Origin: a phage
Reading direction: 5' to 3' (one strand)
Length of the DNA stretch: 64,000 nt
Assembly (NCBI GenBank): GCA_011911785.1
Contig: GCA_011911785.1_4084.1
The translations under genes were made by a program, and so were the position numbers. Within the stretch, counting starts at the first letter, position 1; the number at the start of each line of letters is the position of its first letter. The notes below the pieces were generated by a model, which saw nothing but the letters and a program-made list of their open reading frames with translations, was not told the DNA's origin and made no database searches. Positions 1-10,305 of the stretch are shown piece after piece.

Positions 1-76
1 AGATGCCCAATTTTACTTTGACCTTAGTGATTATGATATCATGTTGGATCATATTAATCGTGTAGGAGAATTGTAA
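1..76 (+). CDS. 3' end of upstream gene (partial), C-terminus resembles FQxS-family members
   Basis: Frame from nt 2 reads DAQFYFDLSDYDIMLDHINRVGEL*; FYFDL tail resembles C-termini of 76..579 and 1799..2269; stop overlaps next ATG (TAATG). Confidence 0.5.
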   Translation, partial: DAQFYFDLSDYDIMLDHINRVGEL

Positions 77-579
77 TGCCTGATATTAGCAAACTTAATT
101 ACGATGAGATTGAACAGTACGCAAAAGATATCTACGAAATCTATGATGAATTCAAGAACAATACTACAGCATTTGGTTCAATGTATTCTCGAAAAAAGAG
201 TCTTAACAGGGATAGGAAAAGTTGTTTAACATATACACAGAAATCGGGCGAAATGATGGAAATCTTCTGTGAATCATTTGATGATAGTGAATATAGTGTA
301 GGCATGAATTACCTATCTTACTCAAAAAAAGGTGAAGTTGTAGTAGATTTACGTCTTGAAAATGGTCGTAATAGAAAGAGTAGTATCAATGAAGAAGATG
401 TAAAACTAATTTCTGAAGAAGATTACTTTCAGTTAAGTACTACTATGAATATGTTGGTATTGAATGTCATAACACTCTACGGTTTCCTTCGATATAAGCA
501 TGAAATTGAAACTGACTTCTATTTTGATTTGAATGATTTTGAAGTATGTAAGGGATATCTAAATGGGAAAAGTAGTTGA
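76..579 (+). CDS. hypothetical protein, FQxS-motif paralog family (A)
   Basis: 167 aa ORF; core motif EEDYFQLSTT; tandem with paralogs. Confidence 0.7.
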   Translation: MPDISKLNYDEIEQYAKDIYEIYDEFKNNTTAFGSMYSRKKSLNRDRKSCLTYTQKSGEMMEIFCESFDDSEYSVGMNYLSYSKKGEVVVDLRLENGRNRKSSINEEDVKLISEEDYFQLSTTMNMLVLNVITLYGFLRYKHEIETDFYFDLNDFEVCKGYLNGKSS

Positions 580-901
580 TATTGAGTACATGCACGATGG
601 TGATGAAATTTTCATTGTCCAAAAAGAATGCAAGGCTGGACATTGGGTTATCTTCTCTGTAGAAGAGGATGAATCCATTGTATCTTTTATTTCTACTAAA
701 CACAAAGATACGAATTTAGAACTTCTTTACAATTTAAGTGAAGAAGAACTATTTCAAATGAGCACTGCATTTGAATATGATGTATACGAATTATTAGATG
801 TACAGAATATTTTGTTGGAGTCTCTTCAGAAACTAAAACACAAAGATTTATTTCTGGTTAAATCATTTATGATGCACAAATTTACACTTGAGGTGGATTA
901 A
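563..901 (+). CDS. hypothetical protein, family A
   Basis: 112 aa; motif EEELFQMSTA. Confidence 0.65.
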   Translation: MGKVVDIEYMHDGDEIFIVQKECKAGHWVIFSVEEDESIVSFISTKHKDTNLELLYNLSEEELFQMSTAFEYDVYELLDVQNILLESLQKLKHKDLFLVKSFMMHKFTLEVD

Positions 902-1332
902 TGTATTTTGAAATTATAAAAGTTAAATCAAAGGCTTTACTTAATACAAGATTTCAAACGTATGGTTGCACTCATAGTGTAATGCTGGATGATAATAACG
1001 AATTGTATTATTCTAAAGTAACACAACCAGTACCGGAGAATAAATTCTATATCTATTCTCACAAAGATAACTCACAATATGACATTGAGAATCTCGCTGT
1101 AATGCCACCTGACGAGCTATTTCAGTACAGCTTAGTATGTCCTTACCGTGGTGATATTGACCTTCTCAAGAAGATTCAGGAGGGTTTAATGGACTTTGTG
1201 CCTAAGTCTAGCCCTGAATATTTTTCAACTAATGTAGAGTTTTTAAAGATCGAAAGAGAAATTCCTGATTATATGCTTAGTGATGATGAGTTCTACGATA
1301 AGCATTTCCCAGGAAAAAAATGGAGAGATTAA
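901..1332 (+). CDS. hypothetical protein, family A
   Basis: 143 aa; motif PDELFQYSLV; start overlaps previous stop. Confidence 0.7.
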   Translation: MYFEIIKVKSKALLNTRFQTYGCTHSVMLDDNNELYYSKVTQPVPENKFYIYSHKDNSQYDIENLAVMPPDELFQYSLVCPYRGDIDLLKKIQEGLMDFVPKSSPEYFSTNVEFLKIEREIPDYMLSDDEFYDKHFPGKKWRD

Positions 1333-1802
1333 TGACATTCCAGGAAGATATTGATTTTGCAAAAAAGATTTACAAAATTCATCTTATAATGGAAAGTACT
1401 GAGTTCCAAAATCGTTCATATGTCGATAAGATTAAAAGCTGTGATAAAAGTTCATTTGTCATAAAACTACCTACATTCAAATCCAAAAGAGAGGCCATCT
1501 ACGCTACGATTTATGATGATTCAGAATACAATCTAATGGATTTGTACATGACCTTTACCCCAGGGAATACACTTGTATGTTACTTCCAATGGGAGGAAGA
1601 GACAATTGTACTTGATAATATAGGTTCTTATAAGCCTACTGAAGAGACGCACTTTCAGTTATCTTTGATCTATACAGAAGAAACAGTTCGTGCTATAATG
1701 TTGTATTCATATCTCAATAGTGTAAATGCCAGTGCTTTCTATCTGGATTTAGTACATCTTGAACTTATTGAGGAATTACTTGCAGAGGAACTTTCTCTAT
1801 GA
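1320..1802 (+). CDS. hypothetical protein, family A
   Basis: 160 aa; motif EETHFQLSLI. Confidence 0.7.
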   Translation: MERLMTFQEDIDFAKKIYKIHLIMESTEFQNRSYVDKIKSCDKSSFVIKLPTFKSKREAIYATIYDDSEYNLMDLYMTFTPGNTLVCYFQWEEETIVLDNIGSYKPTEETHFQLSLIYTEETVRAIMLYSYLNSVNASAFYLDLVHLELIEELLAEELSL

Positions 1803-2269
1803 TAGAATCCGAAGAGTTAGTACTGGATGGTCACGTTATCCGATACGATTCATATGCGGCGTGTATTGATTTTGCAAAGATTTTGATGAAGATTTATCAT
1901 GCTGGTAATAATGGTAAATTTGACAAAGTGTTTGAAAAATCATTTACTCATAATGCATGGTATTACGCTGGTACTGAAGTTTTAAACATAGGGGAATCAG
2001 TGTGTGATAATGAATCATTCATGAGCTTTGATTACTATTATATTCAGTACCATTCATACCTTGATAAAATTTGTGTTCATGACAGTGATTTTAAAGTATT
2101 ACCTTCATATATTGAAATATGTAATGAAGAGATGTACTTTCAAAACTCATTATTATATACAAGTAATATACTTTTACTATCTGTGATTGTAACATACTTA
2201 AGAAGCGAAGGACTTAATTCCTTTTATATTGATTTGGATTTCTTTAATACATTTTTGGAACATTTATAA
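1799..2269 (+). CDS. hypothetical protein, family A
   Basis: 156 aa; motif EEMYFQNSLL; ATGA overlap with upstream gene. Confidence 0.7.
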   Translation: MIESEELVLDGHVIRYDSYAACIDFAKILMKIYHAGNNGKFDKVFEKSFTHNAWYYAGTEVLNIGESVCDNESFMSFDYYYIQYHSYLDKICVHDSDFKVLPSYIEICNEEMYFQNSLLYTSNILLLSVIVTYLRSEGLNSFYIDLDFFNTFLEHL

Positions 2270-2278
2270 AGGTGCTAT

Positions 2279-2785
2279 ATGTCGAGGAAACTATCAGAAC
2301 TAATAAAGTTCGCAAAGGATTGTCTTGATACAATAACTTATTTGTACGTTAATGAAGTTAATTTGCATAGATATTTCGCTATCCATCACAGTACTGAATC
2401 GTCTTTCAATATTCGTCACGGTGCTCATAGTATATATTTTCATACTAAAGCTGAAGATCGTCTGGCTCATTCTATGTTTGAGAAAGGTAAAACGGACTAT
2501 ATTCTATTTCGTTCAGATGGTTCTGATATAAAATATATCGCTCACCAAAGAGGAAAAGCCCAATTTATTAATCATATACTTCCGTACATTACGGATTTAA
2601 CGGATGAAAATTATTTCCAAAATTCATTAATTTACAATGACTCTGAACTTAAAGCAATGTTTATTCTATCGTACTTTAAAAAATATAGTGAGTTTCAGAG
2701 AATTAGTTTTGAATTTGCTTCAATGAAGCACTTTATTAAACAGGTAAGGATTTTAAAAAATGCTGACAAACGAAACAATAGATAA
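2279..2785 (+). CDS. hypothetical protein, family A
   Basis: 168 aa; motif DENYFQNSLI. Confidence 0.7.
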   Translation: MSRKLSELIKFAKDCLDTITYLYVNEVNLHRYFAIHHSTESSFNIRHGAHSIYFHTKAEDRLAHSMFEKGKTDYILFRSDGSDIKYIAHQRGKAQFINHILPYITDLTDENYFQNSLIYNDSELKAMFILSYFKKYSEFQRISFEFASMKHFIKQVRILKNADKRNNR

Positions 2786-3374
2786 AATCAGTCAGATAAG
2801 TTTAGAACTAATTCGTATTCATGAATTTGCATGGCGTCTAACAAATCGTGTTATTTCATTTCATACCAGTACTGAACAAAATTCTACATACAAATTTGAC
2901 CGTGGTGACAAATGGTTTGATTTAATGGATGAAAATTGTAAAGCTATCATCTGCGTAAGAACAGAATTGACCGACCACAACAGAGAAAGAGATTTAGATA
3001 TATATATGCCCGGTTCTTATATTTGTATCTCAAGAAGCGATGGTATTTTTATTAGTTCATCTGGACTTAATTATCTTAATAAAGTCTACATTGATATGGA
3101 TGAAGAAGAAGAATACTATGTCACAACACATGAACCTGAATTTCTGGATATTCCAGATGATGATGTACTCGACGAAACATTGTTTCAGTACTCATTAATT
3201 CACAACGCCTGTGTTATTGATGCTATTAAATTTTGTAAAAATCTATCCCCTAAATTACCATTAACAAAGTATATCAAATTAGAACCTGAAATATTCAAAG
3301 AACAGGACTGGGATGGGTTATTACTTAAATTAAAAAGTATTACTGAAGAAAACATATGTACAATTGGGGATTAA
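2760..3374 (+). CDS. hypothetical protein, family A
   Basis: 204 aa; motif DETLFQYSLI. Confidence 0.7.
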   Translation: MLTNETIDKISQISLELIRIHEFAWRLTNRVISFHTSTEQNSTYKFDRGDKWFDLMDENCKAIICVRTELTDHNRERDLDIYMPGSYICISRSDGIFISSSGLNYLNKVYIDMDEEEEYYVTTHEPEFLDIPDDDVLDETLFQYSLIHNACVIDAIKFCKNLSPKLPLTKYIKLEPEIFKEQDWDGLLLKLKSITEENICTIGD

Positions 3375-3378
3375 TTGA

Positions 3379-4011
3379 ATGAGTACAAAAAGAAAACCAA
3401 TTTCAAAGTACGTGTTTCATCGCCTAGAGTATAAGCACTGCATTGCGTATGCACGAGCATTAACAGACATATTACCACGTCTGAAGGATGATAAGTTCCT
3501 TGAATGTTATGACATGCGTTTTCATAACAATGTTCTTGAGTACATAGAATCAGATGATAGTGAGTTGAATGAAGTATGGCTTGATTTCAGTCCTAGTGGT
3601 TTAGATAAAAATAGAGTTGGGAACTTGGGTCTATTTTATACGCACTGCTTGAACTTCGATTTGTCAGATAAAACATTAGTACTGGATAGTAATGAGGTAC
3701 TTAGATTGAACCTCAATGTTATGGATTATTCAGAAGAAGCATTCTTTCAAAATAGTTTAATATATGAACCGAATGATTTATTATATACTATTGTTTTCCC
3801 ATATCTACATGAGCACCTTAAAGGTACTACAGTTCAAAGAGCAGACATTACCTTTAGTTTAGTAAATTTATTCAAGTACAGTGACGTATTCAAAGAAATA
3901 TGTATTGAAGGCGGTTACTTCGATGACCTTGCTGATTTGAATAACATGGCGTTTGAAAATGATAATTATTTTAACGATACCTATATAGGCGGTTCAAGGA
4001 TAATGAAATGA
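3379..4011 (+). CDS. hypothetical protein, family A
   Basis: 210 aa; motif EEAFFQNSLI. Confidence 0.7.
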   Translation: MSTKRKPISKYVFHRLEYKHCIAYARALTDILPRLKDDKFLECYDMRFHNNVLEYIESDDSELNEVWLDFSPSGLDKNRVGNLGLFYTHCLNFDLSDKTLVLDSNEVLRLNLNVMDYSEEAFFQNSLIYEPNDLLYTIVFPYLHEHLKGTTVQRADITFSLVNLFKYSDVFKEICIEGGYFDDLADLNNMAFENDNYFNDTYIGGSRIMK

Positions 4012-4559
4012 GTCTACCATTAACAATAAACCCAGTACTAAAAGATCTATCTAAAGTTATTATTAACTTTTTTCCTATTGTACTACAAGATATAAAACCT
4101 ATATCAAATCTTGGTTCATGTTATATTCGACACAGTAATAATAAAAACGGTTCTATAGGTACTTTGTACATTAGTGATAGTTCATTGTTTCTTTTGCACC
4201 CTGAGTTATCAGATGAAGAAATTGCAGATGGTTGTTCGGAGGCACAGAATCGTGTACTCACACGTTATCCATATGTGTACATAAGCAGCATTAAACATAA
4301 AAATCTTGCTAATAACTTTTGCCAATGCAATCACGGTGATAACTTAATAGATTTAAATGTTGACGATGGGGTGCTTTTCCAGTACAGTACTCTATATGAT
4401 CAGTTAACAATGGATATCATCGAGTTGGATAAGCTAGTGCGTGATTACATCCCTGATGGTTTCTATCTTACAATGGATCTTAATGTACTGAATTCTGTAA
4501 TGGAACAAGGCACTCTACCAAACATTCTGAGAGACTTACGAGCATTTAAAAGACCCTGA
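4008..4559 (+). CDS. hypothetical protein, family A
   Basis: 183 aa; motif DGVLFQYSTL; followed by terminator hairpin. Confidence 0.7.
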   Translation: MSLPLTINPVLKDLSKVIINFFPIVLQDIKPISNLGSCYIRHSNNKNGSIGTLYISDSSLFLLHPELSDEEIADGCSEAQNRVLTRYPYVYISSIKHKNLANNFCQCNHGDNLIDLNVDDGVLFQYSTLYDQLTMDIIELDKLVRDYIPDGFYLTMDLNVLNSVMEQGTLPNILRDLRAFKRP

Positions 4560-4571
4560 TGGGTCTTTTTT
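4551..4571 (+). terminator. rho-independent terminator
   Basis: Hairpin AGACCC-TGAT-GGGTCT followed by TTTTT; stop codon of upstream gene in loop. Confidence 0.6.
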
Positions 4572-4581
4572 CGTTTATAGG

Positions 4582-4610
4582 TTGACATTAGTAATGTAGA
4601 GTGTTAGAAT
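4582..4610 (+). promoter_or_regulatory. sigma70-like early promoter
   Basis: TTGACA (4582-4587), 17-nt spacer, TAGAAT (4605-4610); about 30 nt upstream of ATG at 4642. Confidence 0.6.
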
Positions 4611-4641
4611 ATTGTAACCTATTTAAAAGAGAGCGTATTTT

Positions 4642-5190
4642 ATGGATAGCATTGTAAATATTATTGAATGCATGATTTATATTTTTAAAAACAGTCCTGA
4701 TAATAAGACTGTTAATTTTGAGTTAGGTGAATTAAATATCAACCCAAAAGAATCTCCATCAGTATATTCTAATATTACATTGTTCATTAGTGGTTTAGGT
4801 TATGTCGTAAAGATCATTAATGCAACACAACGTAGACAAGAATACAAGATGGAAATTCTACGCGGAGATAGTGAAATTCGTCTATATAATGTATCACGCT
4901 ACACTAAGATACTGGTAAAACATTCTTATGAAGATGACGAGAAGTTAGCTGTAGCTAAAATTGATTCAAACACTTTCAAAGAACAAATGTTCATGGCTGC
5001 TATGTCATATGATCAATTAACTTATAATAAGCTAGAAATGGGTTATAAATTACTTAGGTTATTAGAAGATCATTATGAAATTACAATTATGGACAAATTG
5101 CTTACCAAAAGCCAAGAGGAACTAGAGAAAATGCATTTGTTATTAAAAAAATATATTGATGATAATTTAAATTATGGAGAAGTACGTTGA
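4642..5190 (+). CDS. hypothetical protein (possibly divergent family A)
   Basis: 182 aa ORF; degenerate motif [10 protein letters not shown] where others have FQxS. Confidence 0.6.
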
Positions 5191-6599
5191 AAAGTAATTT
5201 AGAAAATATACGCAAAAAAGCCGATAATTTAGTACTATGTTGTATAGGGGCTTTATTTGCTGTTACTTTAGTTTCCGGTGTTGTTCATGGTAGTTTTATT
5301 ATTGCACTAATCGGTGCAGTTTTATTATTAGTAATGCTAACTCCTTTACTATTTGTTGAAAGTAATGCGTTCACTCGAACGTTGTTAAGTATAAATGTGA
5401 TGTGCTGGAGTGCGTTACTAATACATCTTGGCTTAGGGATGGTGGAATGGCACTTTACAGTTTTTGTCTTTTTAAGTTTATTGATTGTATGGCGTGACTG
5501 GCGTTGTGTATTAGCAGGTTCAGTACTGATTGCTATACATCATTTATTATTTGGATTGTTACAGGGTGCTGGAATTCCAATATTATTCGTGTTTTCTTTT
5601 CACCATATTTCGTTATGGCACATTATAGAGCACGCAATATATGTAGTAGTACAGGCAATAGTTCTGATGTACGTAGCGTACATTATGGAGAAAGATGCAA
5701 ATGAAGCAGATGAAATTCAACGAATTGCAAGATCAGTGAATTCTGAAGACGGCAATATTACTTTAGAAATACAAAATAATCATTTCAACTCCGAATTTGC
5801 ACAGACTTTTAGTAAAACAATATCAGCTATGCGTGAGGCAATTGAACAAGTACAAATTACAGTTCAGTCAATGAAAAGCAACTCCTATCATCTCGAAAGT
5901 AAAAGTAATGATTTAGCTTTCAGAACTGAAACACAAGGACAGGCACTTACTCAAATCGCTGCTGCTATGGAAGAATTAAGTGCTACATCTGCAAATACAT
6001 CTGATAACTCCAATACTGCAAAAAGTATGGTTAAAACTACAAAAGAATCCAGTACTAATGCAATTGAAAGTATCAATAATTGCAAAGAGCAGATGGATAG
6101 AATTAAAGAAGATTCTAATGCTATAGTTGCTATACTCAAAAATATAGAAACTATTGCTTTCCAGACTAATATTCTTTCTTTAAATGCCAGTATTGAAGCT
6201 GCTAAAGCTGGTGAACATGGTCGTGGATTCTCTGTTGTTGCACAGGAAGTTCGTAACTTAGCAATGAAATGTGATGCATGTAGTAAAGAAATTAAAGAAA
6301 TCGTTGATAACTCCGTAAAAAACAACAACCAAGGAATAGAACAAATCAACGAAACTGCAAGTGATATTGATTCTATTGTAAAAAATGTTGATTCACTCTT
6401 GCAGTTCATTGATGATTTAGCTATAATGGCTGAACAACAAAGCATTGCAATCCTTCAGGTTACCGAGAGTGTTAATATGATGGACCGTTCAGTACAGCAA
6501 AATGCGGAGCATGTAAAGGACACAATGATGATGGTAGACAATCAACAGTCTGAAGTACATGCTTTACAAAAAGCCACTTCGATTTTTAACGTGAAATAA
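5187..6599 (+). CDS. membrane protein with methyl-accepting chemotaxis protein (MCP) signalling domain
   Basis: 470 aa; TTG start overlapping upstream stop; N-terminal hydrophobic His-rich helices; C-terminal region [37 protein letters not shown] matches MCP highly conserved domain. Confidence 0.85.
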
Positions 6600-6605
6600 T
6601 TTTAA

Positions 6606-6632
6606 AGCCAGGGTATTGACTCTGGCTTTTTT
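6606..6632 (+). terminator. rho-independent terminator
   Basis: Stem AGCCAG/CTGGCT followed by TTTTTT just after MCP-like gene stop. Confidence 0.55.
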
Positions 6633-6672
6633 CTTTGCTATTATTTTAATATTATTTAACCGAGGATATCAT

Positions 6673-7227
6673 ATGGACAATTACCTATTAATCTTACAAA
6701 TTTACAACGAACTGGGAAAACTTCTTGAAACGTGTAATTCACAGGGACGTAAATTAAGAATCGGTTTCGATTATGAAATTGAATACACAGGAGAGGGTAT
6801 TGCAACGCAGCAGATGTTCACAGAAGAAAATAAAACTATTCTGTGCGTTTACCCACATGAAGGTGATGAGGAAGACTGTGTTGTTGATTTTTCATATGAC
6901 AGTTCTTGGGCTTTTATTTCACGTAATCCTCGAATGAAAGAGGCAGTGGATTACAAAGAACCATCATATGATCCTATTGCGTTGTTCAGTACTGAGAATT
7001 TAGAAGAACAAAATTTCCAGAGTTCTGTAACTCACGATAAATTAATCACTGATGCACTTACGATTGAAGCTTTAGCACGTAACTATAAATTTGATTTCAA
7101 TCTCAATAATTATTATATGTCATATAGTGCAACAGCATCATTACTCACTGATGATCAATTAGTAGTATTACTCAAGGACTTGAAAAACTACGCACAAACG
7201 AGAAAAGAACATGAAAACACTAATTGA
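6673..7227 (+). CDS. hypothetical protein, family A
   Basis: Start moved to ATG 6673 (GAGGA RBS upstream, after terminator); motif EEQNFQSSVT. Confidence 0.65.
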   Translation: MDNYLLILQIYNELGKLLETCNSQGRKLRIGFDYEIEYTGEGIATQQMFTEENKTILCVYPHEGDEEDCVVDFSYDSSWAFISRNPRMKEAVDYKEPSYDPIALFSTENLEEQNFQSSVTHDKLITDALTIEALARNYKFDFNLNNYYMSYSATASLLTDDQLVVLLKDLKNYAQTRKEHENTN

Positions 7228-7783
7228 TATTTTTAAAGTACTAGAAGAACTTACTCATAAGTTAGATGAACAAAAAAGAACTGAGAATATTTTTCATTAC
7301 TTCAACAATCCAATGTACCGATTAGTTTTTGATTGCAGTACTTTGTATCGTTATGCTAATATCCAAATACAACACTGCATTCAACATAAAACCAAAAATA
7401 TATGGTCAGTTGATGCTTCTTATGTGGCATCAGGCAGAGAGAGTAAATTTTTGGGTTCAGTTTCTGATTGTAGTCTTACTGTGAATAAACTCAAAGAAAC
7501 TAACGAATTAATCGTCAGAAATTTGTACGATGATTATTATGATGATGAAGAATATCTTCATATTGCACCTGAGCTACAAAATCCAGAAGAGCGAGAAGCA
7601 TATCTTTTCCAGTTGTCGTTGCTCCCAGGTTATGATATGATAGCTAAAGCTGATTTTGTATATCAACTATCAATGCAACTTGGTAGTGGGGAGTGTTCTG
7701 CTTTCAATAATCTATACAATGAAAGTACTGAAACACAAGAAGAATTATTGGAGGAATTAAATGCCTTTCTCAAATCTTTATAA
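7211..7783 (+). CDS. hypothetical protein, family A
   Basis: 190 aa; motif EAYLFQLSLL. Confidence 0.7.
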   Translation: MKTLIDIFKVLEELTHKLDEQKRTENIFHYFNNPMYRLVFDCSTLYRYANIQIQHCIQHKTKNIWSVDASYVASGRESKFLGSVSDCSLTVNKLKETNELIVRNLYDDYYDDEEYLHIAPELQNPEEREAYLFQLSLLPGYDMIAKADFVYQLSMQLGSGECSAFNNLYNESTETQEELLEELNAFLKSL

Positions 7784-8339
7784 TTACATGTCCGAAGAGT
7801 ATCAATATTACACTAAGATGGTTTTGAAAGTGAATGCTATTCTTAATAGTGATTTATGTAAAACTAAAAAGACATTTAATCTCCCATATATGCGTTTGAC
7901 GATTACTAAAGACCAGGAAGGTATGTATGATCATGCAGTAGTTTCGATGAATGATCTACGTGTCTTTCTGATAATTAAGTACAATAAAGAAGATTTAACC
8001 AACAACGATGGGTACATTAACTACGATTATATTATTGGAGGAAATGCTGAAGTTCCAGGGACAAGTGAATTTGCAGGGATTGTTATTTCAGGTAAAAAAA
8101 TTCCAAAGATTAATCTTAACAGTAGTACTATAGAAGAAGAACTATTCCAGTTAAGTACTATGTACAGTACTAACGAATTGGATTTATTACTTTTCAGTAC
8201 AATCGTCAATCATGAACTGGATAAGAAAGACAAATACTGTCCATTACAACAAATTGTTCATCGTTTTAAACGTAGTGAATTTAAAAGAATTCATGAAGGT
8301 CTGGACAGTCTTATCAACAATACTGGGGAGTTCTCATGA
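7761..8339 (+). CDS. hypothetical protein, family A
   Basis: 192 aa; motif EEELFQLSTM. Confidence 0.7.
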   Translation: MPFSNLYNYMSEEYQYYTKMVLKVNAILNSDLCKTKKTFNLPYMRLTITKDQEGMYDHAVVSMNDLRVFLIIKYNKEDLTNNDGYINYDYIIGGNAEVPGTSEFAGIVISGKKIPKINLNSSTIEEELFQLSTMYSTNELDLLLFSTIVNHELDKKDKYCPLQQIVHRFKRSEFKRIHEGLDSLINNTGEFS

Positions 8340-8896
8340 AATATAGTCTTTACAGTAGAGGAAAGTTTCTTGAGAAGTTCATTGAAGATTGTGTAGCTGC
8401 ACTGAGTTTAATTCGTGAAGGTGAATACATTAAAGTCAATCACACTGTACTAAGAGATCTTAATTTTTTTCTGAGTGGTGATTTGAATAATGATATGCAC
8501 TTCACAATAACGTACAACCACAAAGATATCATTGAAATCAATACACAACAACGACACATAAAAGAATACACCCGATTACGCAATACCAAGACAAAGCGTG
8601 TAGTAATTAAAAAAGGTGATGTAGAGTTGATGTGTAAAGATAGTACTGCAATAGATATCAGTACTTACTTCGATAATGAAGAAGATATGGATTGTGATTG
8701 CTTCCAGAAGAGTTTAATTATTGATGATCCGTATGTACTGTACGGTGCAGTACTGGCTCCGTTCTGTCAGAAGAACTTACCAGATGGATGTACGGTTGAA
8801 TTGAACTTGACAGAACTCATGAATGATGATATATTTGAGTACATGAGTACTAACTCCAAGGCAATGATTGAACATATTAAGGCAATCCAATGTTAA
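8336..8896 (+). CDS. hypothetical protein, family A
   Basis: 186 aa; motif CDCFQKSLII. Confidence 0.65.
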   Translation: MKYSLYSRGKFLEKFIEDCVAALSLIREGEYIKVNHTVLRDLNFFLSGDLNNDMHFTITYNHKDIIEINTQQRHIKEYTRLRNTKTKRVVIKKGDVELMCKDSTAIDISTYFDNEEDMDCDCFQKSLIIDDPYVLYGAVLAPFCQKNLPDGCTVELNLTELMNDDIFEYMSTNSKAMIEHIKAIQC

Positions 8897-9375
8897 ATCC
8901 AGAAGACGTTATTAAATTTTGTAAAATTCTTGTGAAGTATTCTCATAAATTTGTGCACGAAGTACAGATAATGATTGATGGTATTCCATTTAACTTCGTG
9001 AAAAACAACGACATTATATCTGTGTTCTGTGGCTCATGGACATTTTGTGAACTCAACTGTCAAGAATCTCAAAATGTTATTGTGAAACGAAACATGATCC
9101 TATCAAGGGAAAGTTCAGTATTCATTGAACCAAGTGGTGAAATCATATACGAGAAAAAGAACGGCGACAGAACTTTAGATGATTTTATGGCTGAATTGAG
9201 CCTTGATAATGAGTTTCATAGAAATGCAGTACTGATACATAGTGCTATGGTGCATGAAACTAATTTAAATTCTATATCAATTAATTTCGGTGTTTATTCT
9301 TATTACAAATTTACATTTGATATGATATTTCAAACACTTAACAAACATCCTATATTCTGGAAATGCAATGAATAA
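8890..9375 (+). CDS. hypothetical protein (possibly divergent family A)
   Basis: 161 aa; degenerate motif DFMAELSLD. Confidence 0.55.
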   Translation: MLNPEDVIKFCKILVKYSHKFVHEVQIMIDGIPFNFVKNNDIISVFCGSWTFCELNCQESQNVIVKRNMILSRESSVFIEPSGEIIYEKKNGDRTLDDFMAELSLDNEFHRNAVLIHSAMVHETNLNSISINFGVYSYYKFTFDMIFQTLNKHPIFWKCNE

Positions 9376-9826
9376 AGACGATTACGAATTACTGAAAAAG
9401 TTAATCCAGTACTGCCTCAATGAACTGGATAATGGTAAAGCTCGAAAATCAGGTTCATGGTTTGATGTAAGCTATCCATCAGACGGCGATGATATGATGA
9501 CATTATGGTCAAATGAAAGATACATTGATTATAGTGTAATGGATAATACTACTATAGATTATGTCAATGACAATGTATGGTATTTCAATACACAGTTAAT
9601 CATTGATATTAAAAGTATAGATTTAAGTACTGAGATTGATGAAGCAACCATATTTCAATTAAGTACTTTGTATTCTGATGAAGTGATATATCCGTTATTA
9701 CTTCTCCTACAGTTGAGAGCCATTGCAGCGGAACGTGGTTTCACATCCATATCATTTGCTCATGACATTGATGTACGAAGAGCAGAAATTACAAAATTAG
9801 TTGAGGGATATGATGGAACACTTTAG
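9368..9826 (+). CDS. hypothetical protein, family A
   Basis: 152 aa; motif EATIFQLSTL. Confidence 0.7.
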   Translation: MNKDDYELLKKLIQYCLNELDNGKARKSGSWFDVSYPSDGDDMMTLWSNERYIDYSVMDNTTIDYVNDNVWYFNTQLIIDIKSIDLSTEIDEATIFQLSTLYSDEVIYPLLLLLQLRAIAAERGFTSISFAHDIDVRRAEITKLVEGYDGTL

Positions 9827-10304
9827 TACTAAAGACTTTGTGGAATTGCATAAAATTCTTGAAGAAAAATATATCAATGAACAATATGGTCGATTCGAAC
9901 TGGCTCCAGATATTATTCTTAAAATACAAAAAGATGGTATGATCCGAGTTGTATTTGAGCAGAAAAGAGGTTTAGACCATGACATTTTCATGCTCTTTGA
10001 TAGCAATAGTCCTATCTATGATGCACCAAGCTTCGATACAAGCACCATTGGTTCACAATCCGCAGTCTTTCATCCAGGAACTACTGTTGTAAAAATCGAT
10101 GGTGTAGATTGCAACATGCGACCTGTATCATTGGATGAAATTGATGAAGTTGAATTTCAGAACAGTACTGTGAATAATTATAGTGCAATGTTCACCTACA
10201 TGTGCTATCTTAACAGTACTTGTTGCAAATTTCTTATGTACACATCGTATGTAAATGAAGATGAAGTACTACACTATGTATTGAAAAAACTAAGAGAATT
10301 ATGA
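9801..10304 (+). CDS. hypothetical protein, family A
   Basis: 167 aa; motif DEVEFQNSTV. Confidence 0.7.
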   Translation: MRDMMEHFSTKDFVELHKILEEKYINEQYGRFELAPDIILKIQKDGMIRVVFEQKRGLDHDIFMLFDSNSPIYDAPSFDTSTIGSQSAVFHPGTTVVKIDGVDCNMRPVSLDEIDEVEFQNSTVNNYSAMFTYMCYLNSTCCKFLMYTSYVNEDEVLHYVLKKLREL

Positions 10305-10305
10305 T

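Follow-up and report, generated by a model that had tools for sequence, protein, structure and literature searches.

The chemoreceptors of Escherichia coli all belong to the 36H length class, and in Tsr the tip of the signaling hairpin makes the trimer contacts and binds CheA and CheW. The NWETF pentapeptide is a feature of the high-abundance receptors only; receptors without it work in mixed arrays, where they rely on their neighbors or on methylation-independent adaptation. A polytopic membrane sensor with outer-face histidines is known from the MHYT domain, a proposed metal holder sensing O2, NO, or CO. The nearest described architecture to the protein presented here is that of HtrVIII from Halobacterium salinarum, in which six transmembrane (TM) segments precede a methyl-accepting chemotaxis protein (MCP) domain; its membrane histidines were proposed to hold a cofactor, and the protein was proposed to be a heme-based aerotaxis transducer (PMC13401364). 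Here, we analyze an MCP gene in a 64,000-nucleotide stretch of phage DNA (NCBI GenBank assembly GCA_011911785.1, contig GCA_011911785.1_4084.1), which is referred to as the window. The gene (5187..6599, + strand) has a TTG start and 470 codons plus stop, and judged by the open reading frame (ORF) listing, Pfam, HMMER, and hhalign, it encodes a complete and intact MCP.

The window is part of an Asteriusvirus jumbo phage and shares ~99% identity with Escherichia phage A4 (355.5 kb, ON286972), a phage of E. coli LF82. There, the gene is A4_379 and already carries the GenBank annotation 'methyl-accepting chemotaxis protein'. The A4 paper, which calls the phage virulent, does not discuss the gene (PMC9355613), and in the literature on phage MCPs we found annotation-level mentions only. 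As detailed below, the gene was captured as a whole from a bacterial receptor family, it is kept under strong purifying selection, and its product may well work in the chemosensory arrays of the host.

Results

A signaling hairpin of the host length class

The initial annotation, a reading of the DNA letters without database searches, had claimed an MCP signaling domain, and profile comparisons fully agree with this. Pfam MCPsignal (PF00015) matches aa 281-434 with E=7.1e-37 and 127.3 bits against a cutoff of 34.6 bits, HMMER against Tsr structures gives E=7.5e-36, and hhalign against E. coli Tar reaches a probability of 100 over aa 177-470. The NCBIfam models for Tar, Tsr, Tap, and the citrate transducer also match at E=1e-41 to 1e-49, which is below their equivalog cutoffs.

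The signaling hairpin, aa 216-470 (5832..6596, +), was assigned to the 36H class by ungapped alignment to the E. coli receptors and by AlphaFold2 (AF2). Residues 216-469 align with Tsr 264-517 without a single gap, such that each position equals the Tsr position minus 48, and a MAFFT alignment likewise showed no gaps in the hairpin relative to Tar, Tap, Trg, and Aer. At the hairpin tip, aa 322-362 (6150..6272, +), 30 of 41 residues are identical to Tsr 370-410, and F325, I329, L332, N333, E337, E343, F348, V350, E354, and R356 are kept (in this order Tsr F373, I377, L380, N381, E385, E391, F396, V398, E402, and R404). A string of 37 tip residues had been described in the initial annotation as canonical nearly residue for residue. 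This string, at aa 323-359, is indeed highly conserved, but with 30 of 37 residues identical to Tsr the wording was too strong.

The same annotation had proposed a check of the methylation sites together with the tip. Only E262-E263 (5970..5975, +), which corresponds to Tsr E310-Q311 at adaptation site 3, is a canonical methyl-accepting Glu-Glu pair. Site 1 (Tsr E296-Q297, here E248-T249), site 2 (Tsr E303-E304, here T255-Q256), and site 4 (Tsr E492-E493, here K444-D445) are not canonical, and site 5 (Tsr L501-E502, here Q453-Q454) is possible. Sites 1 and 2 are missing from the closest bacterial clade as well, so that their loss is a clade trait. The protein ends with ...ATSIFNVK directly after the hairpin and thus, as in Aer, has no NWETF pentapeptide.

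The hairpin is preceded by a HAMP-like linker, aa 173-215 (5703..5831, +), delimited by AF2 together with HMMER and hhalign. In the full-length AF2 model, helix 143-184 extends TM6 and is followed by a coil connector, helix 203-340, a turn at aa 341, and helix 342-464. HMMER and hhalign align residues 174-215 with HAMP in Tsr, Tar, and Af1503. Pfam HAMP is not among the 25 most-matched families listed for 35 homologues. By alignment and model, aa 173-215 appear to behave like a degenerate HAMP.

The alignment also revealed that the glycine hinge is replaced. A292-I293 (6060..6065, +) take the place of the N-helix hinge glycines Tsr G340-G341, and A391 (6357..6359, +) takes the place of the C-helix hinge glycine Tsr G439. 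Position 292 is a glycine in 23/23 bacterial homologues as well as in four aligned E. coli receptors and Tsr, whereas the second hinge position is a glycine in 16 and the third in 20 of the 23 homologues. A292, I293, and A391 are fixed across ten aligned full-length phage sequences, which are nine 470-aa variants plus the window sequence and include A4 and four contigs of 351-359 kb. Exchanges at the hinge impair or abolish chemotaxis, and the hinge has been proposed to allow the ON/OFF transition (PMC6606802); it has also been argued to be necessary to avoid clashes in arrays (PMC6628036).

A predicted six-helix membrane sensor

In agreement with the earlier view of a polytopic, His-rich N-terminus in place of a classical periplasmic ligand-binding domain, aa 1-172 (5187..5702, +) contain nine histidines and six predicted TM helices, and the prediction contains no periplasmic domain. 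AF2 places the helices of this sensor module, N-in/C-in, at aa 4-33, 37-56, 61-81, 86-102, 105-127, and 143-186; the model of the membrane domain, based on a 35-sequence alignment, has a pLDDT of 89.5 and a pTM of 0.83. Every lysine and arginine of the sensor (positions 2, 9, 10, 11, 64, 103, 106, and 169) is on the predicted cytoplasmic side, and the three predicted periplasmic loops have none. This distribution indicates the N-in/C-in topology that a cytoplasmic MCP domain requires.

H89, F90, F93, H119, Q126, and H149 are invariant in the family, and E87, R103, and H118 are nearly so. E87-W88-H89 (5445..5453, +) is situated at the periplasmic start of TM4, with H89 in 23/23 and E87 in 21/23 homologues. 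H118-H119 (5538..5543, +) belongs to the outer half of TM5, with H119 in 23/23 and H118 in 22/23, and H149 (5631..5633, +; 23/23) is near the periplasmic end of TM6, six residues in. Judged by helix position, E87 and H89 at the start of TM4, H118, H119, and Q126 in the outer half or at the end of TM5, and H149 would all lie in the outer-leaflet half of the membrane.

No Pfam, NCBIfam, or PHROGs model covers the sensor domain, and the match to PHROG 8572 is limited to aa 140-469. When aa 1-175 were compared alone with 5.8 billion proteins, nothing was found at E<=0.01, and a profile was needed. With the sensor profile, we found 5,851 clusters (representatives at 50% identity) at E<=1e-3, 512 of them at E<=1e-30, and all of ten sampled matches are MCPs, some with HAMP or PAS inserted. 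A sequence of the phage lineage (P0001) scores E=2e-54, but the window sequence was included in that profile. By these profile matches, the sensor domain is a member of a very large, unnamed family of chemoreceptor sensors. The family profile finds no PDB sequence at E<=10, and a Foldseek search of the six-TM model against PDB and BFVD gave nothing significant.

Two candidate relationships of the sensor were not borne out. A likeness to heme-copper oxidase subunit I is ruled out at the sequence level, as hhalign against CyoB gives a probability of only 0.05. The initial annotation had also proposed models of metal-binding membrane domains, of which Pfam MHYT (PF03707) does not match the phage MCP at E<=1 and is not among the 25 most-matched families listed for 35 sensor-family members. 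A gene for an MHYT-GGDEF-EAL protein adjoins the Paraburkholderia homologue.

Origin and maintenance of the gene

Full-length homologues of ~483 aa with 99% coverage and 38-40% identity are found in Enterobacter soli, E. wuhouensis, Pseudocitrobacter, Pantoea, and Siccibacter, and a second group in Cupriavidus, Paraburkholderia, and Aquabacterium has ~31% identity. In a neighbor-joining tree, a long branch leads to the phage MCP, whose sister group is the Enterobacterales clade, and the membrane half and the cytoplasmic half of the protein both have their nearest neighbors in this clade. Sequence kinship thus identifies the phage MCP as a whole-gene capture from an enterobacterial-type family, which we term 6TM-MCPs. 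A chimera or fusion built by the phage can be ruled out, as the protein is colinear with the bacterial 6TM-MCPs and both halves are nearest to Enterobacterales.

The bacterial homologues occur after exbBD, next to another MCP gene, next to the MHYT-GGDEF-EAL gene, and, in one case, directly after flhB-flhA-flhF-fliA. By this context, members of the family are flagellar chemoreceptors. Among the bacterial neighborhoods examined (loci L002, L086, L087, and L088), there is no consistent gene partner that would hint at a ligand. In 5,426 complete E. coli genomes, we found no DNA relative of the sensor-coding half of the Enterobacter gene, indicating that the host lacks a receptor of this type.

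The composition of the gene points to an old and fully ameliorated acquisition. Its GC content of 34.4% equals that of the window, and its GC3 of 0.25 is like that of the neighboring genes, whereas the homologues have 57% GC in Enterobacter and 61-69% in Burkholderiales. The encoded protein follows this trend, with 30% FYMINK residues compared to ~18% in the bacterial proteins and 16% GARP residues compared to ~27%.

Despite this divergence, the phage MCP agrees with the family at 63 of its 77 conserved columns, with 21/23 in the TM domain and 33/40 in the tip. Of the 14 changes at family-conserved columns, G292A alone is not conservative; the other 13 are exchanges such as A>S, V>I, R>K, and L>I. 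Nei-Gojobori dN/dS values between the window, A4, and one metagenome contig are 0.03-0.08, and in aa 2-172 the three phage alleles differ by 5-7 synonymous changes and not a single non-synonymous one. The cluster at 90% identity comprises ten variants, nine of which have 470 aa; the tenth (P0274) has 304 aa and is encoded on a contig of 1,041 bp. The gene is intact with the same neighbors in A4, in the window, in several independent contigs of 351-359 kb, and in metagenome contigs. The MCP gene is thus kept under strong purifying selection in A4-like Asteriusviruses.

The carrier phage and its variable region

In 50,697 phage records, a full-length tblastn match to the MCP was found only in A4. 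The same holds for the surrounding DNA: window 1-12650 (12.6 kb) matches only phage A4 at the DNA level, and in ~50 other Asteriusvirus-like genomes, including 121Q and PBECO4, matches to the window begin only at ~12,650. This part consists of tandem same-strand ORFs of ~150-210 aa and looks like a lineage-specific hypervariable cargo region. The neighbors of the MCP gene are small ORFs of ~180-200 aa, several of which match different phage-only PHROGs of unknown function while two match none, and both directly flanking ORFs were found only in A4 by tblastn and gave no informative family match.

Mismatches between the window and A4 are patchy, with 9-17 per 500 bp at 2501-4500 and 6001-6500 and 0-5 in most other blocks. 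The dS is ~0.08 in the MCP gene and ~0-0.01 in the immediate flanks. Together, these patterns suggest mosaic recombination among A4-like phages. As the mismatches are patchy across the whole region, we dropped the idea that the raised synonymous divergence of the MCP gene has a special meaning.

No lysis of LF82 by A4 occurs in broth, and the A4 paper raises the suspicion that the infection strategy is atypical (PMC9355613). Near-identical copies of the MCP (P0270, P0271, P0272, and P0277) are encoded on contigs of 351-359 kb, three of which are filed as E. coli isolate assemblies. These contigs have the size of whole A4-like genomes accompanying the isolates, which suggests a carrier-state or pseudolysogenic lifestyle. 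The lack of lysis in broth and the phage-sized contigs in isolate assemblies together suggest that infections last long enough for host behavior to matter.

The annotation of A4 lists no other che gene in the regions matching window 1 to ~63,300, and we found no tRNA genes in the window. For window ~21000-63300 (approximately 67-110 kb in A4), the A4 annotation lists genes concerned with nucleic acids and host takeover, namely RNA ligase, polynucleotide kinase/phosphatase, DNA ligase, Ser/Thr phosphatase, Sir2-like and PhoH-like proteins, Clp-type proteases, and dCMP deaminases. The same part has an annotated anaerobic ribonucleotide reductase together with a glycyl-radical partner, which points to an adaptation to anaerobic gut hosts.

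Gene structure and expression signals

As already recognized in the initial annotation, the gene starts with a TTG (5187-5189) that shares bases with the TGA stop codon (5188-5190) of the ORF before it, and it ends at a terminator of its own. The start region reads ...GGAGaagtacgTTGA..., with a Shine-Dalgarno sequence GGAG (5176..5179, +) 7 nt 5' of the TTG. The GenBank record of phage A4 uses the same start. As aa 8-15 align with the conserved N-terminal motif ('IR..AD.L') of the bacterial homologues, no downstream start is plausible.

The upstream ORF (4642..5190, +; 182 aa, function unassigned) is translationally coupled to the MCP gene by the 4-nt overlap. It matches phrog_36809 (unknown function) with E=1e-9 and has no detectable kinship to any Che or signaling family. 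Two elements precede it. A terminator-like hairpin of the preceding transcription unit (4548..4569, +; 9-pair stem with 4 G-C pairs, then a T-run) sits just past the stop of ORF 4008-4559, and a sigma-70-like promoter (4582..4610, +; TTGACA-17-TAGAAT with an extended -10 TG) agrees with the consensus at 11 of 12 positions and is the joint best among the 16 kb scanned. This promoter is the likely start of a two-gene unit. Five nucleotides past its stop codon, the MCP gene is followed by an intrinsic terminator (6604..6639, +), an 11-pair hairpin (6604-6629) plus T-run with a folding energy of -15.5 kcal/mol (z=-4.27); none of 200 shuffled sequences folded as well. Because of the hairpin and the promoter ahead of the upstream ORF, this ORF and the MCP gene look, from their DNA signals, like one short promoter-to-terminator unit.

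Near-consensus sigma-70-like promoters are also present at 6616-6644, 8807-8835, 12523-12550, and 14278-14306, all on the + strand. These recurrent promoters have TTGACA or TTGACT, a 16-17 nt spacer, and TAnnAT, often with TG, and are spaced every few kb. Some of them directly follow terminator-like hairpins on the 3' side, which suggests many short early transcription units.

Discussion

The explanation towards which we cautiously lean is that the phage MCP is a working receptor that plugs into the CheA/CheW arrays of the host. After infection, it would insert into the inner membrane as a dimer with both termini in the cytoplasm. With its 36H length and a tip that is nearly the same as in Tsr, Tar, Trg, Tap, and Aer, the hairpin could join the host trimers-of-dimers and the CheA/CheW lattice. 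At the other end of the molecule, the outer-leaflet pocket of TM4-TM6 (E87, H89, H118, H119, Q126, and H149) may bind a metal or heme cofactor or titrate with a cue from the periplasm or the membrane. The candidates are a transition metal, O2 or the redox state sensed via bound heme or metal, and pH sensed by titration of the histidines. TM6 and the HAMP-like linker would relay the state of the pocket to the hairpin, and the output would be an altered CheA activity and hence an altered swimming of the infected cell, in response to a sensory input that E. coli otherwise does not have. As there is no NWETF tether and only a single canonical methylation pair, adaptation would depend on neighboring host receptors. 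With the hinge glycines exchanged, the output probably is biased or switches poorly in comparison to the bacterial homologues; hinge loss and sparse methylation sites together suggest a biased, poorly adapting output.

Several observations weigh against a fully functional receptor. All three hinge glycines are replaced, by A, I, and A, and since hinge exchanges impair or abolish chemotaxis (PMC6606802), the phage MCP may not switch normally. The trimer-contact residue R388 of Tsr is K340 in the phage protein, variant L005 has a threonine at the family-invariant A334 of the tip, and Pfam HAMP does not match at E<=1. The spatial clustering of the histidines is derived from helix positions only. 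With respect to expression, the promoter at 4582-4610 rests on its consensus match only, and promoter-like sites are overall not more common than in shuffled sequence. Binding to CheA/CheW and entry into arrays are inferred for the phage MCP, as are its ligand and cofactor.

The initial annotation had suggested that such a protein could hijack or jam host CheA signaling or sense a membrane cue, and this would be consistent with the 36H length, the conserved contact tip, and the lack of other annotated che genes in the A4 region. Jamming alone would mean that the phage MCP enters host arrays via its tip as a locked or dominant-negative unit and freezes the CheA output, resulting in constant smooth swimming or tumbling, with chemotaxis shut down or biased and no new ligand-responsive sense. 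Such a role, which we regard as unlikely but worth serious attention, draws its force from the loss of the hinge, which is restricted to the phage copy (A292, I293, and A391) and fixed across its full-length variants; exchanges at these glycines impair or abolish chemotaxis, and the hinge is the proposed mediator of ON/OFF switching (PMC6606802). The single canonical methylation pair, the missing NWETF tether, and the conserved tip would also fit. However, the loss of methylation sites 1 and 2 is common to the closest bacterial clade and thus not phage-specific, and an alanine at the position equivalent to G439 is also found in E. coli Tap and in the Pantoea homologues. A pure jammer would not need a sensor, yet no part of the protein is more constrained than the six-TM domain, whose invariant His, Gln, and Glu residues are all kept. 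This very strong constraint on the sensor half favors a ligand-dependent role, as far as substitution patterns can tell.

A role outside the Che system is less probable still. In that case, the protein would sense or scaffold at the membrane for a purpose other than CheA control, such as bringing phage components to the cell pole, superinfection exclusion, or monitoring of the membrane state, and its hairpin would merely be a rod or pole-localizer. Chemoreceptors do localize to cell poles, the hinge is lost, R388 is replaced by lysine, and the gene is coupled to the phage-only ORF 4642-5190, whose product could be a partner. Against this, that ORF is not detectably related to any Che or signaling family, the tightest cytoplasmic conservation is at the trimer and CheA/CheW contact residues, with 33 of the 40 tip columns kept, and the 36H register has been maintained without one indel relative to the host receptors, which would be needless for a simple scaffold. 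The gene might finally be a functionless passenger or artifact, whether host DNA from a recent transduction, a contaminant of the assembly, or a moron undergoing decay. Many MCP matches in viral collections are indeed prophage-flank or fragment records, and the gene resides inside the hypervariable, A4-specific 12.6-kb region. However, its GC and GC3 are phage-like and not donor-like (34% versus 57-69%), the nearest bacterial protein is only 38-40% identical, and no DNA similar to the sensor-coding half of the Enterobacter gene was found in 5,426 E. coli genomes. Moreover, the gene is intact with the same neighbors in A4, the window, and the independent 351-359 kb and metagenome contigs, with dN/dS of 0.03-0.08. 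Composition, replication across genomes, and purifying selection therefore exclude contamination, recent transduction, and pseudogene decay, and we give this last explanation hardly any credence.

If the phage MCP is a working array receptor, it could have a wider role that we consider possible but doubtful: the phage would supply E. coli with a sixth chemoreceptor whose His-lined sensor bears a cofactor or metal, and thereby steer infected cells or keep them in place over a long non-lytic infection. Were this the case, it would amount to 'virocell navigation' toward oxygen, redox, pH, or metal conditions that favor phage production or new hosts. The reprogramming of host metabolism by phages is known, but to our knowledge, direct control of host behavior via a phage-encoded sensory receptor has not yet been shown. 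The MCP gene offers a clean test case, being a single intact receptor under strong selection whose length and tip are matched to the best-understood signaling array. A4 can be cultivated; the E. coli strain on which it grows is Crohn's-associated, and motility plays a part in colonization by this strain. As a natural hinge-less receptor, the protein could also serve as a probe of the role of the glycine hinge, and it draws attention to a sensor family of more than 5,800 clusters that has neither a curated model nor a known ligand.

Comparison with known systems

Full MCPs with other sensors are present in two further records of more than 270 kb. Vibrio phage vB_VmeM-Yong XC31 (MK308674, 290 kb) encodes a 610-aa protein with dCache_1, HAMP, and MCPsignal (QAX96201.1; L093:1187-3019), and 'Microcystis phage MaAM05' (MW495066, 274 kb), a phage by its record title, encodes a HemAT-like 508-aa protein with Protoglobin and MCPsignal (WMU93215.1; L094:1796-3322). 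Both are annotated only as 'hypothetical protein'. Like the MCP of the window, they are full-length receptors with a matching tip and no other che genes nearby; unlike it, they have different, non-6TM sensors and are of unrelated origin. The occurrence of full MCPs with dCache and protoglobin sensors in other jumbo phages raises the possibility that a lone phage receptor is a recurrent jumbo-phage strategy. In IMG/VR, 179 viral contigs have relatives of the MCP signaling domain, with at most 41% identity and none close, and several of them lie at contig ends; in the 80 contigs that were kept of these 179, there was no match N-terminal of aa 121. A 2026 preprint lists CheR, CheY, and MCP in Nitrosospira phages.

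In comparison to E. coli Tsr and Tar (PDB 1QU7, 3ZX6, and 6S1K), the phage MCP has a hairpin of equal length without indels (33% identity over Tsr 264-517), the site-3 pair, and a linker that aligns with HAMP. It differs in that the periplasmic four-helix ligand-binding domain is absent and replaced by the six-TM bundle, in that A, I, and A replace the hinge glycines G340, G341, and G439, sites 1, 2, and 4 are not canonical, NWETF is absent, and R388 is exchanged for lysine, and in that Pfam HAMP stays below threshold. Aer, Trg, and Tap share the 36H hairpin and the lack of a C-terminal NWETF, and Tap also has an alanine at the equivalent of G439. However, all three keep G340 and G341, and none has a polytopic His-lined sensor, as Aer has a cytoplasmic PAS-FAD sensor and Trg and Tap have periplasmic domains.

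With regard to the membrane part, the six-TM anchors of class III cyclases (AC9, 6R3Q; AC5, 8SL3; Mycobacterium tuberculosis Rv1625c/Cya, 7YZI) and of the Pseudomonas aeruginosa diguanylate cyclase ImcA (8WCN) resemble the sensor in fold at 9-13% identity, which does not establish homology. Their output is a cyclase rather than an MCP, and we know of no report of a histidine cluster in these anchors. MHYT domains share the concept of a polytopic membrane sensor with outer-face histidines, but the phage motifs are ExHF, HH, and H rather than Met-His-Tyr-Thr. HtrVIII comes nearest in its order of six TM segments and MCP domain and in its conserved membrane histidines, whereas the likeness to oxidase subunit I that was claimed for it is not seen in the phage MCP.

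The true relatives are the bacterial 6TM-MCPs of Enterobacter soli (P0006), Pseudocitrobacter corydidari (G163CM_43090), Siccibacter, Pantoea, Cupriavidus, and Paraburkholderia, with which the phage protein is colinear over 99% of its length at 31-40% identity. They have the six TM helices, H89, H119, H149, Q126, F90, F93, and the 'LSLNAS...GEHG' variant of the tip in common with the phage MCP. The phage copy differs by its AT-ameliorated composition, its long branch, the lack of an N-terminal extension of ~13 residues, and, uniquely, by the loss of the invariant G292. The domain identity of the gene product is already in GenBank, and what sets it apart from the studied receptors is the sensor, the absent hinge, and the virulent jumbo phage that carries it.

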